Assembly: GCA_965247115.1 (NCBI GenBank)
Contig: CBDFGR010000002.1
Location: 576,001 to 640,000, forward strand
Length of the DNA stretch: 64,000 nucleotides
Reading direction: 5' to 3'
Origin: Myxococcota bacterium
GTDB taxonomy: Bacteria; Myxococcota_A; UBA9160; SZUA-336
Positions 696 through 28,345 of this stretch are shown here, one piece after another. The notes under the pieces are model-generated. The model worked only from the letters and a program-made list of their open reading frames with translations, was not told where the DNA came from and made no database searches. The position numbers and the translations under genes are program-made. Position 1 is the first letter of the stretch. Every line of letters starts with the position of its first letter.

Positions 696-1868
696 ATGGC
701 AAGCGAAACGAAGTGTCTGGTCTACGCTTCCTCGATCAGGGAGAACGCGCTCCTTGCATATGCGCTCGACCGAAATACCTGCTCACTCGTTCCGATCGGG
801 AAGCCGATTGAGCTCGGCGTGCCGTGGGCTCTCACGCTGAGTCCGGACGGGCGGTTCCTCTACGCCGCCGCTCACGTGGAGCATGTCATCGCGACGCTCG
901 AGATCGACCCCGTTTCTGGAGCACCGAGGCTGCTCGACGTCATGCCGCTCGACACGATGAAGGTCTTGCGTGCCGCGGACCAGAAACGCGGGGTGATCCA
1001 CAAGATCCCGACCTATCTGACCGTCGACCCGACGGGTCGGCACCTACTCGTGTGCGACTACTACAGGGACACGCTGGCCTCCTTTGCCCTGGCCGAGGAC
1101 GGGCGCATCCGGGGCGAGACTGCGGCGAGCGTGAGTGTCGGACCCGGCGTGGGGCACTCGCCGGAGCTCCCCAGCCACCCCCACTCGATCCAGCTGGATC
1201 CGAGCGGGCGGTTCGTGGTGGTGCCGCTTACAGGAGCCGACAGCATCCACTTCTTTCGCTGGGATGGCAGCACGGGCCGCATCTCCGACAAGGCCGTGGG
1301 GAGCGTGGCCACGGTCGGCGGGACGGGTCCTCGACACTTCGCGTTTCACCCCTCGCGGCCGCTCGTGTACTTTGCGAACGAGCGCGGGGAGCATCACTCG
1401 AGCGTTACGCTGTTCGAGCGAGCAGATGGCGAGCCGACGCTGCGCGAGCTCGACACCTGGTCGACGATCCCGACTTCCCACACGAGTCCGAATGCCATCG
1501 CGGACATCCATATCACCCCGGACGGGCGCTTTCTCTACGTCTCCAACCGCGGTCACGACAGCCTTGCGGGCTACGCAATCTCGCCCGACGACGGCAGTCT
1601 GGAGTCGCTCGGCCAGTTCGCCACCGGAGCCGCGCCCACCACGTTCGCGATCGAGGCTGGCGGGGAGCTCGTGGTCTCCGCCAGCACCCGCGACGGCACG
1701 CTGTCGGTCCATCGCATCGACGCGGAGAGCGGCTGCCTCTCGAAACCCGAGGTGACCGAGTGCACGTGGTTCGGCGACGAGACCGACCGGATGGAGCCGG
1801 TGGAGTCCCGCGCTACCGAGCAGGGCACCGGCGTGCCCTGGGTGCTCACTCTGACCCTGCCTGCCTAG
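696..1868 (+). CDS. Lactonase family beta-propeller protein (6-phosphogluconolactonase/Pgl-like)
   Basis: SHPHS, GPRHFAFHP, ADIHITPDGRFLYVSNRGHDS motifs; start 696 or 681. Confidence 0.85.
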   Translation: MASETKCLVYASSIRENALLAYALDRNTCSLVPIGKPIELGVPWALTLSPDGRFLYAAAHVEHVIATLEIDPVSGAPRLLDVMPLDTMKVLRAADQKRGVIHKIPTYLTVDPTGRHLLVCDYYRDTLASFALAEDGRIRGETAASVSVGPGVGHSPELPSHPHSIQLDPSGRFVVVPLTGADSIHFFRWDGSTGRISDKAVGSVATVGGTGPRHFAFHPSRPLVYFANERGEHHSSVTLFERADGEPTLRELDTWSTIPTSHTSPNAIADIHITPDGRFLYVSNRGHDSLAGYAISPDDGSLESLGQFATGAAPTTFAIEAGGELVVSASTRDGTLSVHRIDAESGCLSKPEVTECTWFGDETDRMEPVESRATEQGTGVPWVLTLTLPA

Positions 1869-2439
1869 CCGCGTTCCACTCCCGTTGCATTCTTCGAAGC
1901 AGAGCGGGGTAGACGACCAGGCGGCGAAAAGGATCGATGAGCGCCATGTACCAGCGGGTCCAGCCGCTGACGGGCTGGACGTAGATGGCCAGCCAGACCC
2001 GGTTGCCCTCCGCAGTGGGTTCGAGCGACGTGGACAGGAAGGCGTGAACAGTCGCGTTGCGAACCTCGAGGAGAGCTTCACCCGGGAGCTCGAACACCAC
2101 GCGAAACGGGCCCGGGCCGGCTGAGCCAGGAGGCGAGAGAGAACGAGCCCGGTCCGCCTCTCGGAGGCGGTGGATATAGGAGTGAGGGTCCGGTTCGGAG
2201 CCCCTTAGGTCCCAGCCAAGAGTCCGACCAAGCCAGGCGCGCAGGCGAAAAAGCTGCGCGGCCGCCCATCCCACATCAGAACCGTCAAGGTCCGGCACGA
2301 ACCCCGGGACGTCACGCAACGTCGCGCCCGGAGCGCCGCCAGAGAGATCGACCGTCCAGACGTCGCGCAGTGGAACGTCGGTGAGCAGCTCGTGAACGAG
2401 CAGGTCCCGAACCGCGAAGCTCTCAGCACTCGCCTTCAT
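1846..2439 (-). CDS. DUF2867-like protein
   Basis: LFRLRxxLG...GPFRVV...EVRNATVH...YMALIDPFRRLVVYP pattern typical of this family. Confidence 0.65.
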   Translation of the reverse strand: MKASAESFAVRDLLVHELLTDVPLRDVWTVDLSGGAPGATLRDVPGFVPDLDGSDVGWAAAQLFRLRAWLGRTLGWDLRGSEPDPHSYIHRLREADRARSLSPPGSAGPGPFRVVFELPGEALLEVRNATVHAFLSTSLEPTAEGNRVWLAIYVQPVSGWTRWYMALIDPFRRLVVYPALLRRMQREWNAARQAGSE

Positions 2440-2525
2440 CGGCTCCCGGTCTTTGCTTTCAGGAGAATCGGTCCTATGCTAGCTCTGCTTGGCATGCCAA
2501 GCAGCCCCCAGAGAGGGAATTCTCG

Positions 2526-3287
2526 ATGCCCGAAGCCGCAGCGCGACCGACCGCCCCGAACCCGCTCTGGCTCTTGCTGGAAGCCCCACGCCTGGTCCTC
2601 GAATCCGCCACCCTGGCACCCTCCGTCCCGGTTCTCTGGCGGGCCCCGCGCGGAGACGGGCACCCCGTGATGGTGCTACCCGGTTTCTGGGCCGGCGATC
2701 AGTCCACGCGGGTGCTGCGCGAGTATCTGCGCCGACTGGGCTACGGGGCCCACCGCTGGTTGCTGGGCCGGAACACGGGCCTTCCCGAGGGAGCCGCCAG
2801 GCAGCTCATGGATCGCGTGACCGATCTGCATCGACGCTACGGACACCCCGTGAGCCTGGTGGGCTGGAGCCTCGGCGGGATCTACGCGCGCGAGCTCGCG
2901 CGCCAGGTCCCGCACGCCGTACGCCAGGTAATCACGCTGTCCAGCCCCTTCGGTGGCGAACACCGTGGCCACCGAGCGGGCTGGCTACACCGCACGGTGA
3001 CAGGCGAAGACATCCCGCCGGAGTTGCGCAGGCGCATGAACCGCAACGCCGGACCGCTGCCGGTACCTTCCACAGCGATCTTCAGCAAGAGCGACGGGGT
3101 CGTGGGCTGGCGTGCCTGCATCGAACCGGAAGCGGAGCACACCGAGAACATTGAGGTGGTCGGCAGCCACTGCGGACTCGGCTTCAACCCCGTGGTGCTC
3201 TACGCGGTGGCGGACAGATTGTCTCAGCCAAAGGAGGGCAGGAAGAGCTTTGACAAGAGCGGCCTCCGCCGGCTCTTCTACTCGTAG
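2526..3287 (+). CDS. Alpha/beta hydrolase, lipase-like
   Basis: GWSLGG nucleophile elbow, PG oxyanion loop, SxxDGVV and catalytic His in SHCGL. Confidence 0.85.
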   Translation: MPEAAARPTAPNPLWLLLEAPRLVLESATLAPSVPVLWRAPRGDGHPVMVLPGFWAGDQSTRVLREYLRRLGYGAHRWLLGRNTGLPEGAARQLMDRVTDLHRRYGHPVSLVGWSLGGIYARELARQVPHAVRQVITLSSPFGGEHRGHRAGWLHRTVTGEDIPPELRRRMNRNAGPLPVPSTAIFSKSDGVVGWRACIEPEAEHTENIEVVGSHCGLGFNPVVLYAVADRLSQPKEGRKSFDKSGLRRLFYS

Positions 3288-20716: not shown

Positions 20717-21793
20717 ATGGATTCTCTCAAGACTGTTTCTAATCATAAACTGCTCCGTGGCCTGGACGAACTCGTGGCGATGCGCCGCCAGAACGAGGCA
20801 GACCTGCTCGCGTACCTTGCCGAGGTCGATCAGCGCAAGCTCTATCTGGGAGAGGCCTGCTCGTCCATGCATTGCTACTGCACGGAGGTGCTCCGATTCT
20901 CGGACGCGACTGCCTTTCACAAGATTCGCGCTGCACGGACTGCGCGCGCATATCCCGCCTTGTTCGAGAGAATTCGAAAGGGCGAGATCCACCTGGCGGG
21001 AGTGATTCTGCTCGCGCCCCTACTCACTCCGCAGAACCACGTGGAACTGCTCGACCTGGCGCACCACAAGAGCCGGCGTGCGATCGAGGTGCTTCTCGCC
21101 AATCGCGCTCCAAAACCTGATGTGCCGGCGCGGGTGAGGAAGCTCCCAGAGCCCAGTCCGGCCCCTGTGATCCCGATGCGCTCCGAGACCCGTAGTCCGC
21201 CGCACGAGACTTCGGGCCGCGAAGCGGCCGCCTCACCTCCGATTCGACGCGCATCGAGTCCAGCCCCGAGCCCGCTCGGGGCCAATCGGTTCAAGATCCA
21301 GTTCACGGGCAGCCAGGCGCTCTACGACAAGCTCCGTGAGGCGCAGGCTCTGCTCAGTCACCAGATTCCGGACGGCGATCTCGTGGAGATCTTCGATCGA
21401 GCGCTCACGTTGCTGCTCGAGGATACGAAGCGGAAGAAGTTCGCCCAGACGCCGAGACCCCGAGCTGGGTCGAACCCCTCAAAGCGGACCGGAGCCGCGA
21501 CCCGGCACATCCCGGCGGAGATCAAGCGTGCCGTCTTCGCGCGGGATGGAGGTCATTGTGCCTTCATCGGAGCGAACGGCCGCCGTTGCGGTTCACGCGA
21601 CTTTCTCGAGTTCCATCACCAGGACCCCTGGGCCAAAGCGAAGCGCCACTCGAGCGACCGAATCGAGCTCCGCTGTCGAGGGCACAACCAGTACGCAGCG
21701 GTGCAGGAGTATGGGGCTGCCTGCATGGCGCGATTCGCGAGGCAAAGACCACTCTCCAAGGGAGAGTGCAACGTAAAGCATCGGCAGGAATGA
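20717..21793 (+). CDS. DUF222-like N-domain plus C-terminal HNH endonuclease
   Basis: N-terminal LAEVDQRKLY...SSM..YC..VL.FS; Pro-rich linker; RHIPAEIKRAVFARDGGHC...RC...LEFHH...LRCRGHN. Confidence 0.85.
   Translation: MDSLKTVSNHKLLRGLDELVAMRRQNEADLLAYLAEVDQRKLYLGEACSSMHCYCTEVLRFSDATAFHKIRAARTARAYPALFERIRKGEIHLAGVILLAPLLTPQNHVELLDLAHHKSRRAIEVLLANRAPKPDVPARVRKLPEPSPAPVIPMRSETRSPPHETSGREAAASPPIRRASSPAPSPLGANRFKIQFTGSQALYDKLREAQALLSHQIPDGDLVEIFDRALTLLLEDTKRKKFAQTPRPRAGSNPSKRTGAATRHIPAEIKRAVFARDGGHCAFIGANGRRCGSRDFLEFHHQDPWAKAKRHSSDRIELRCRGHNQYAAVQEYGAACMARFARQRPLSKGECNVKHRQE
21750..21768. repeat. Second copy of the ACTCTCC-N3-GGAGAGT palindrome at the HNH 3' end
   Basis: CACTCTCC-AAG-GGAGAGTG; same core as 20451-20467. 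Confidence 0.75.
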
Positions 21794-26721: not shown

Positions 26722-26811
26722 ATCCTATTTATCCACGATCTGGCGCTGAAGAACAAGACGGTGCTCGCTCAGGAGGCATGGTCCAGCTCCGCCCTCATCC
26801 GGCCTCACCAC

Positions 26812-27111
26812 TCAGTCGCCGCCACCGAGAACAACCCTCAGGAGCCGTCGTGACGGGATGCCCGAGGACCCGTACATCCGACGGCCCAGGGCGTACTCAG
26901 TCTGCGCGTCAGCGCCCGGTTCAATGTCAGCGCCGTCCACTCGGATTGACGGCGCGCCGACGAAGCGATGCCGCTCGGCTTCCCGCTGGTCGCGAACGTC
27001 TGTCTCCTCGACCTCTGCGTCGAGGCCGAGTTCGGACAAGGTCGTGTCGATCAGCTCGCGCGTCGGTCGGTGGTGCGGACACCCGTCAAAGTACAGGAGT
27101 TCGATCTTCAC
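26812..27111 (-). CDS. Small thioredoxin-fold protein of the type found near mer genes (DUF2703-like)
   Basis: GTG 27111: MKIELLYFDGCPH...FVGAPSIRVDGAD...YALGRRMY. Confidence 0.75.
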   Translation of the reverse strand: MKIELLYFDGCPHHRPTRELIDTTLSELGLDAEVEETDVRDQREAERHRFVGAPSIRVDGADIEPGADAQTEYALGRRMYGSSGIPSRRLLRVVLGGGD

Positions 27112-27194
27112 GGTCTGGTGCTGTGCTCCGGCTCCGCAGTGTGACCCAGCTCGTCCCCCTCCCACTCCTCTTCCCAACCAAATGCTTTGCTCAT
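27108..27194 (-). CDS. 28-aa acidic mini-ORF (leader or remnant) coupled to the thioredoxin-fold gene
   Basis: AGGAGG RBS 27203-27208, ATG 27194, MSKAFGWEEEWEGDELGHTAEPEHSTRP; stop overlaps the next start (GTGA). Confidence 0.5.
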   Translation of the reverse strand: MSKAFGWEEEWEGDELGHTAEPEHSTRP

Positions 27195-27199
27195 GTCGC

Positions 27200-27736
27200 C
27201 TACCTCCTAGCTCTCTCCCACCGATCCAGGCGAGTCAGTCCTGCCTTTCATGGGAACTCCTCGACCTTGCGTCCGCGAATCATCCCCAGCACGTGGGGAA
27301 CGGCGCGGAGCTCTCATCCCGGAGCCGCGACGACAGCCGCCACGATGTGCGACGCACCTACCACTCCGAGCACCAGCGCCAGCAGCAGGCCGAAGGTGAG
27401 ACCCAAGGCGGCGCCGTTGGGGCTACCGCCAAGTGCGAGATCCGCGGCGCATGCGAAGACGAACAGGCCGCCCACACCGAGACGCACCTGTCGCCGGGGC
27501 CACGAGCGCGAGAACGGCATGCCGATGACCTCTGGGATCACGTACAGCATGAAGCCGAGGCCGATCCAGGCCATCGGGTTCGCCAGGTTGACGCCGTCTA
27601 CCAGCCTTGGAAAGTCGGCAACCATACCGGCAAAGAAGTAGAGGAGCGCCAGGCCAAATAGCAGTCTCACCGCTCGGCCGATGGGACCAGGCCGCGGGAG
27701 TCGCTCGACCTCGGCAGACGCGGTTTCCCCGCTCAT
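27200..27736 (-). CDS. Putative selenoprotein membrane protein with two in-frame UGA (Sec) codons, 178 aa
   Basis: The ORF track stops at UGA 27314. Read-through gives ...AAPG-U-ELRAVPHVLGMIRGRKVEEFP-U-KAGLTRLDRWERARR-TAG(27200); hairpins follow both UGAs; about 4 hydrophobic segments. Confidence 0.7.
27217..27234 (-). promoter_or_regulatory. Weaker SECIS-like hairpin after the second UGA
   Basis: CUCGCC-UGGAUC-GGUGGG (two G.U pairs); loop starts at +20 from UGA 27248-27250, with G at loop position 2. Confidence 0.4.
27272..27309 (-). promoter_or_regulatory. Bacterial SECIS-like hairpin after the first UGA
   Basis: UCCGCG-CCGU-UCCCCA-[CGUGC]-UGGGGA-UGAUU-CGCGGA: two 6-bp Watson-Crick stems; apical loop starts at +21 with GU at loop positions 2-3. 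Confidence 0.65.
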
Positions 27737-27744
27737 GGGCCAGA

Positions 27745-27776
27745 AAGGTAGCGCTTGAACCCTGGTTTAAGGTCAA
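27745..27776 (-). promoter_or_regulatory. MerR-family promoter/operator
   Basis: TTGACC-20 bp-TACCTT with the dyad CTTAAACC-AG-GGTTCAAG in the spacer; elongated spacer typical of MerR-family activation. Confidence 0.8.
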
Positions 27777-28165
27777 CCCCCCTTCGCCCGTGCGGAGAGA
27801 TCGTCGATCACCCCGCAGCGGCCCCTGCGCTCGTGTCTGTGGCACTCCTCCAGAGAGCGCCGCAGCACGCGCTGGACGTGGCGCAGCTCCCGCATACGGT
27901 CGGCCACGGCCTCGAGTCTGCGCTCGATGAGGCGCTGCACCTTGCCGCAGGGCGCTGGGCGCAGGAGCTCGGTCTCGTCCCGCAGCGTGAACGCCGTCCC
28001 CTGCGCCGCCCGGATGAAGCGGAGCCGCTCCACGTCTTCCCGGAAATAGAGGCGGTAGTTCGAGCCGTTGCGACCCGCTGGGCGGAGAATCCCCTCACGC
28101 TCGTAGTACCGGACCGTCGAGGTCGGAACTCCGGCCGCCTTCGCTAGCTCGCCAATCGTGAACAT
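27773..28165 (-). CDS. merR: Metal-responsive MerR-family regulator (Hg/Cd/Pb/Zn type)
   Basis: FTIGELAK..GV..STVRYYER.G...YRLY; Cys73/108/117 with the 35 and 9 spacing of Hg-MerR C82/C117/C126; GGAGGTGAGGAG RBS. Confidence 0.88.
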   Translation of the reverse strand: MFTIGELAKAAGVPTSTVRYYEREGILRPAGRNGSNYRLYFREDVERLRFIRAAQGTAFTLRDETELLRPAPCGKVQRLIERRLEAVADRMRELRHVQRVLRRSLEECHRHERRGRCGVIDDLSARAKGG

Positions 28166-28186
28166 CTCCTCACCTCCTCGTCTGAG

Positions 28187-28205
28187 GTTGTACCTAACCT
28201 CAAGG
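28187..28205 (-). promoter_or_regulatory. Second MerR-like operator upstream of merR (autoregulation)
   Basis: ACCTT-N7-GGTACAA versus ACCTT-N7-GGTTCAA at the downstream promoter; also IR TGAGGTT-N6-AACCTCA at 28183-28202. Confidence 0.55.
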
Positions 28206-28345
28206 TGGCGCGCAGACGCGACCAGACCAGCGGCTGCGCCTTGTTTCCGGCGGCTTTGAAACGCGCGTTGCAGGAAGCCCGAGCCCCGGAACCGTAGCAC
28301 TCGCCGAAACGTCGGCGCCCTACAGTAGGGGAGCTTGGAAGAGCA

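Follow-up and report, generated by a model that had tools for sequence, protein, structure and literature searches.

Where does the small membrane protein encoded next to a MerR-family regulator in this DNA end? In the window, the whole 64,000-nt stretch analysed here, its reverse-strand frame runs from an ATG at 27736 over 140 codons to a TGA, over 21 further codons to a second TGA and over a last 15 codons to a TAG at 27202-27200. The earlier note had proposed that this frame is read through both UGAs as selenocysteine (Sec) up to the TAG abutting an AGGAGG, and we confirm a frame of 178 codons plus the TAG with these parts:

27200..27736 (-): read-through gene, a 178-aa membrane protein with four predicted TM helices and two C-terminal helices
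27314..27316 (-): UGA141, putative Sec in P-G-U-E-x-R right behind TM4, aligning with an invariant Cys
27248..27250 (-): UGA163, putative Sec 22 codons past UGA141, aligning with an invariant Cys
27203..27208 (-): Shine-Dalgarno AGGAGG, spelled by the two Arg codons that close the read-through frame

The two TGAs are not assembly errors, because sequencing run X1, probably the source sample, shows 0 differences from the window across 26800-28250. Neither TGA is altered among the changes listed for runs of related strains (X5-X8, X14, X16); five of the 11 changes listed for the gene are non-synonymous, and the UGAs and conserved residues are all spared. GC content by codon position in the tail past UGA141 is coding-like (0.70/0.51/0.70 vs 0.73/0.50/0.78).

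A first homologue search, run with U read as C, returned 16 proteins consisting of the window's own truncated product, nine close relatives that all stop at ..PG and six longer homologues that carry PGCE...C...D.WE. We sorted the best 150 of 210 cluster representatives by pattern: 117 show Cys at both sites, 19 terminate exactly at PG, two (P0100 and P0145) carry the first Cys and terminate just before site 2, and 12 were left unclassified (four visibly have both Cys and most others are fragments). The expectation that gene callers truncate the protein is thus borne out by nine of nine close relatives and 19 of the 150 representatives. In an alignment of 82 sequences picked as full length, with P0001 entered with C, the sole invariant columns are G140, C141, E142, C163 and D171; both UGAs therefore sit at conserved Cys positions, as had been suspected. 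We refer to these proteins as the double-Sec family; the record names of its members are all 'hypothetical protein'.

P0100 and P0145 are probable single-Sec forms, judged from the protein ends only, and we dropped the idea that Cys and Sec sites are never mixed on account of these two proteins. Some members are fusions: P0034, P0054, P0149 and P0152 carry a membrane domain that has no name and contains a CxRxHC motif, for which all Atlas clusters are hypothetical, and P0075, P0103 and P0119 are fused to a DF domain (DF match below cut-off). Longer fused forms of 350-2000 aa were not found, which is weak evidence. Searches of plasmids and of viral contigs for the family gave no match, and neither did a related-locus search of genomes for the double-Sec gene.

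The earlier note had also suggested a search for TGA-bearing homologues, and these turned out to be numerous. Metagenome and relative searches yielded TGA+TGA homologues at L006, L007, L070, L073, L078, L079 and L080. We then searched genome contigs with a DNA pattern that required TGA at the first site but just TG at the second, resulting in 64 matches, 34 of which were recognised as family members by a profile made from Cys forms only. Although any TGN was allowed, site 2 is TGA in 34/34 family loci, 22 codons after site 1, compared to 8/30 for the other matches, which are chance. By record title the 34 loci belong to Chloroflexota (14), Acidobacteriota (11), Ca. Neomarinimicrobiota (3) and, with one each, Thermodesulfobacteriota, Myxococcota, Actinomycetota and Latescibacterota, giving seven named phyla overall, with two loci unnamed. 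Five of the 34 (L084, L109, L112, L133, L140) have extra stops or frameshifts. In L109 and L133 one more TGA, the third, stands in frame and is probably a mutation or sequencing error; that of L109 falls on a Trp position.

All loci together comprise 61 Cys/Cys, 42 TGA/TGA and two that are cut, and in the 42 Sec loci both sites are always TGA and never TAA or TAG. The gene is distributed patchily within the host's class: six of 225 genomes have it, four in the Sec form and two in the Cys form. L080, from a genome of the host's genus (G002), is missing the first helix region and has kept both TGAs and hairpins. A tree of Cys and Sec forms, built from 168 of 194 rows after seven broken or duplicate loci had been removed, needs six state changes, but only one is forced by starred branches.

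Sec insertion in bacteria calls for a hairpin behind the UGA. The bSECIS consensus described in PMC13188914 is a 3-9-nt loop located 16-37 nt after the UGA with a G in the first two loop positions. The hairpins that had been claimed at SECIS distance behind both UGAs are present and conserved across the family, and in the window they are:

27283..27299 (-): SECIS-like hairpin 1, a 6-bp stem with a 5-nt loop that has G at position 2, 20 nt past UGA141
27217..27234 (-): SECIS-like hairpin 2, with a loop that begins UGG, 19 nt past UGA163

Both satisfy the bSECIS model, with loops at 20 and 19 nt and local MFE of -13.0 and -9.4. Single-sequence folding does not distinguish them significantly from dinucleotide shuffles (z of -1.66 and -0.19), and it is their family-wide conservation that gives them weight. 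After site 1, a hairpin carrying G at the start of its loop is found in 34/37 Sec loci vs 0/54 Cys loci, and after site 2 such a hairpin is found in 35/37 Sec loci vs 10/54 Cys loci, the Cys ones at a different offset; these counts were made with near-duplicates removed, bulges allowed, an analyst-set -5 kcal threshold and a test picked after seeing the sequences. A strict unbulged scan does not separate site 2 (24/39 Sec vs 28/56 Cys).

Synonymous positions inside the hairpins are almost frozen across phyla (Pro CCC in 35/36, His CAC in 26/26, Leu CTG in 34/36 and Thr ACC in 23/25), while upstream of the hairpins third codon positions vary, with the top codon of Pro139 at 0.38. The stems pair in 85 % of cells compared to 44-63 % for slid registers, and hairpin 2 occurs in two registers and shows a C-G/U-A exchange (20 and 11 of 32 rows) that goes with a change in the encoded residues; these counts lean favourable, the kin being not independent and the structure being drawn from the same sequences.

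The machinery for Sec is found where the gene is found. A selA above cut-off is present in 32 of 35 carrier genomes compared to 15 of 30 chance-match genomes, and two of the three carriers without a selA match have tRNA-Sec. The earlier note had let its reading depend on selABCD in the host. There, selA, selC (tRNA-Sec) and a Sec-type selD with its own TGA are all present; selB lies in two frames in the assembly, having one nucleotide more than the gene of same-genus G002, whose frame of 652 codons is intact. Since comparable indels occur in up to five of 98 other host orthologues, both an assembly error and a real loss are possible. The host selB locus is L004 (G000:C2, about 1656150-1658070). 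We rejected a code in which UGA means Trp or Gly: the genes next to it terminate with TGA, homologues have Cys at the aligned position, and tRNA-Sec is the only tRNA of the host with a TCA anticodon.

The gene lies in an operon whose remaining features are:

27773..28165 (-): MerR-family regulator of 130 aa with Cys73, Cys108 and Cys117
27745..27776 (-): MerR-type promoter/operator, TTGACC and TACCTT separated by a 20-bp spacer with an imperfect dyad
28183..28202 (-): palindrome ahead of merR, probably a degenerate second operator
27108..27194 (-): doubtful 28-codon ORF between the read-through gene and the DF gene
26812..27111 (-): thioredoxin-like DF-family gene (NF049942, 100.6 bits, cut-off 70)

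The regulator had been taken for an Hg-type MerR, and the three-Cys spacing and the 20-bp-spacer operator agree with this assignment. The Cys spacing of 35 and 9 is that of C82/C117/C126 in Hg-MerR; the best match, TIGR02051 MerR at 98.6 bits, is under the cut-off of 150.85. The -35 of the operator overlaps the merR stop codon, and the same arrangement precedes the gene in L006, L078, L145 and L146. A promoter scan with 16-18-nt spacers found nothing at 27745..27776, which is expected because the spacer is long.

A 7-nt deletion in merR is found in four (X5-X8) of the five other DNA runs covering merR and in the RNA run, and is absent from X14; seven of the eight changes listed for merR are non-synonymous. 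The contigs of that RNA run leave the read-through gene uncovered. The second Cys of the DF protein is Arg (CGT) in this strain only and Cys (TGT) in five other runs. The 28-codon ORF is doubtful because four of four listed changes are non-synonymous and because some strains have 149 other nt in its place. The replacement takes 33 nt within 27167-27201 in X5, X8 and X14, and perhaps a small gene is missing here. Elsewhere in the window, 20717-21793 (+) holds an ORF of 358 aa, probably a mobile element gene, with an HNH-like motif, read by eye, at its C-terminus.

These observations bear on the reading in which the UGAs are true stops, so that the gene either makes a protein of 140 aa or is a nonsense pseudogene. 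The split selB in the assembly and the signs of decay in merR and DF speak for it, and the system in this particular strain may be decaying; if the selB frameshift is real, read-through may have lapsed in this one strain. At the level of the family, true stops are very unlikely given that the sequence is conserved beyond both UGAs, that the codon is always TGA (42 loci) and that the hairpins are conserved, and we regard this reading overall as highly improbable. Judged from sequence comparison, the two UGAs very likely encode Sec in an uncatalogued family, and SelB-dependent insertion at both codons is, family-wide, what we infer with near certainty.

What the protein does is suggested by its neighbours, which link the family to mer operons as the MerR-controlled layout of the window had implied. 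Genes for MerR, MerT, MerA, HMA, GDCCVxC or DF lie within 2.5 kb in 42 of the 61 Cys loci, which largely form one redundant clade, and mer-type neighbours are present in 23 of the 26 Cys loci with enough upstream DNA; in L012 a MerA over cut-off lies 42 bp upstream of the Cys-form gene. Eight of the 42 Sec loci are in mer-type operons (the window, L006, L082, L100, L101, L107, L108 and L135). Elsewhere among the Sec loci the gene follows a CsoR/RcnR repressor (L095, L098), precedes an efflux gene (L097) or retains the operator alone (L078), and about 30 of the 42 have no recognisable metal gene nearby. MerA is above cut-off in six of 35 Sec-form genomes; no MerA over cut-off was found in the host genome, where the best match is without the C-terminal Cys pair. 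Two Cys-form loci of the host's class repeat the window layout of merR, operator, gene and DF, L145 with a MerC-like gene and L146 with MerF and MerB; the Sec-form locus L006 repeats it too and continues with a MerT-like gene. The double-Sec family is often found in mercury-resistance clusters and likely binds mercury.

A separate MerT-like gene with a CC motif lies elsewhere in the host genome (L147, G000:C2, about 1345382-1345603). The merR-gene-merF-DF-merB operon of L146 (G193) encodes at 1842-2513 (+) a MerB (PF03243, 101.6 bits) with an in-frame TGA at 2361, apparently at the last catalytic Cys position, making it a candidate Sec MerB within a genuine mer-type operon; this TGA is preceded by Thr, not by Cys as in the CU motif of SaoL. 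At 2716-3270 (+) of L145 (G195), a secreted/lipoprotein-like gene after merC has an in-frame TGA in a UxxC motif; it has no Pfam match and is similar to the CxxC protein that adjoins 19 of the Cys loci.

To place the two Sec in the protein we used an AlphaFold2 model built from 112 rows (pLDDT 92.4), which has long helices at 18-40, 54-75, 81-103 and 109-136, then at 142-154 and 167-177. The charge pattern is positive-inside and favours both termini inside, so that U141 at the end of TM4 and U163 in a cytoplasmic loop are both predicted to lie on the cytoplasmic face of an N-in/C-in protein. No conserved ligand lies inside the membrane or on the outer side in the 178-aa protein. Foldseek found no solved fold at E<=0.001, an absence that is not proof of a new fold, and the best structural match by VIA-align has a Z of 5.6 and an rmsd of 4.4 over 79 residues.

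Selenolates bind Hg tighter than thiolates. We lean towards a MerR-induced membrane protein whose two-selenolate site would capture mercury at the inner membrane face and pass it on, a proposal built on the predicted topology and the mer-type neighbours. Hg(II) or organomercurials, whether they come across the membrane or via MerT, MerC, MerF or MerE, would be captured in a two-coordinate Se-Hg-Se site shaped by the conserved E142, R144, D171 and W173, and would then be handed to MerA or to the thioredoxin-like DF protein. Against this reading stand the many Sec loci with no recognisable metal gene, the few Sec-form genomes with a MerA over cut-off, and the lack of a Cys pair within a membrane helix such as MerT-type importers carry.

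It is also conceivable that the protein moves Hg(II) across the membrane unaided in the manner of MerT, being a small multi-helix membrane protein in mer operons of which some, such as that of the window, have no other transporter. The helices and outer loops of the 178-aa protein lack a conserved ligand, the gene usually adjoins MerT, MerF, MerC or MerE instead of replacing them, and none of 112 members has a Pfam Mer-transporter match, all of which makes such an importer improbable.

A different use of the two Sec would be a membrane redox relay in which U141 and U163 cycle through a diselenide, exchanging electrons with a thioredoxin-like partner for thiol repair under metal or oxidant stress. 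The DF thioredoxin-like partner is adjacent or fused, a CxxC protein (motif read by eye, no family match) stands beside 19 of the 61 Cys loci, L082 has MerE-thioredoxin and AhpC/TSA genes, and metal genes are missing at most Sec loci; most selenoproteins that are still uncharacterised are, according to a review, probably redox proteins (PMC13188914). The dominant neighbours are nevertheless MerR, MerT, MerP/HMA, MerA, MerF, MerE, MerB and CsoR/RcnR repressors, and no solved membrane oxidoreductase was matched. We consider a relay rather unlikely.

The invariant Cys, Cys and Asp echo Cys96, Asp99 and Cys159 of MerB (PMC8261052), and merA or a merA-like gene stands immediately before the family gene in L008, L010, L012, L016, L017, L100 and L101. 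The protein might then be a membrane lyase like MerB (PF03243), in which two Cys/Sec ligands and the conserved Asp protonolyse the Hg-C or another metal-carbon bond of lipophilic organometals. MerB does share the two invariant Cys, the Asp and often the position after merA; however, it is a soluble enzyme unrelated in sequence and fold, and L146 carries both a Cys-form family gene and MerB, so we hold a lyase of this kind to be doubtful at best. Another reading, an undescribed part of mercury resistance in the form of a membrane-anchored two-selenium catalyst that would strip or cleave lipophilic mercury species at the membrane face, MerA-free in many carriers and with Sec gained stepwise at site 2 and then at site 1, strikes us as unlikely.

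The mercury transporters MerT (PF02411), MerC (PF03203), MerF (PF11431) and MerE (PF05052) are likewise small multi-helix proteins with a thiol pair, found in the same operons under an Hg-type MerR. The double-Sec family has no Pfam or NCBIfam match, its ligand pair is 22 residues apart and predicted to be cytoplasmic whereas theirs is vicinal in a helix, and, unlike in these proteins, both ligands are Sec in many lineages. Metal-related selenoproteins catalogued in Table 1 of PMC13188914 are a putative mercuric transport protein, MbdU, NF041115 UxxU, SaoL/SaoP, GDCCVxC (NF041374) and DF (NF049942). They have in common with the double-Sec family UGA/Cys pairs, a downstream SECIS and a metal-related context, and DF and GDCCVxC selenoprotein genes are neighbours of the double-Sec gene. 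None of their Pfam or NCBIfam models matches the family, which differs in that its integral membrane proteins have two separate Sec, with the two SECIS spaced by 66 nt.

The earlier note had further likened the C-terminal pattern to that of a DUF6410-like family (PF19948). What stands is a weakly shared helix-xGCE-helix-C-xx-D-x-E module: aligned with L148, one protein over the DUF6410 cut-off that the model does detect, it spans 51 columns (hhalign E 4e-4, probability 34 %) and covers model positions 5-69 of 189, with the remainder unaligned. Membership itself was rejected, no score exceeding the Pfam cut-off in the host genome, in 27 homologues or among the 25 families listed for 112 members.

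Scans of Pfam, NCBIfam and PDB sequences found no family match for the double-Sec protein, and the ESM Atlas gave no family name (best score 0.85, all hypothetical). The family is absent from the 119 prokaryotic selenoprotein families of Table 1 in PMC13188914, as compared by scan for those with Pfam or NCBIfam identifiers and by name for the others. In the literature covered, including sections of PMC12013277 and PMC13326102, we found no description of it; the families of Haft and Tolstoy 2025 were compared via the review table. Haft and Gwadz state in a preprint that they found no selenoprotein with a part in mercury resistance (bioRxiv 10.1101/2022.07.06.499078). We conclude that this is very probably a real double-selenoprotein family, uncatalogued and tied to mer operons.

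The finding adds an uncatalogued family of selenoproteins, which occurs in bacteria of at least seven phyla, most of them uncultured, and which databases hold as truncated hypothetical proteins, and gives a recurrent gene of mer operons that has had no name. With Cys and Sec forms in one operon layout, selenium versus sulfur in mercury handling becomes directly testable. With two units of UGA plus SECIS, 66 nt apart and with RNA pairing that co-varies with the protein, the gene would lend itself naturally as a model of how bacteria recode in tandem.
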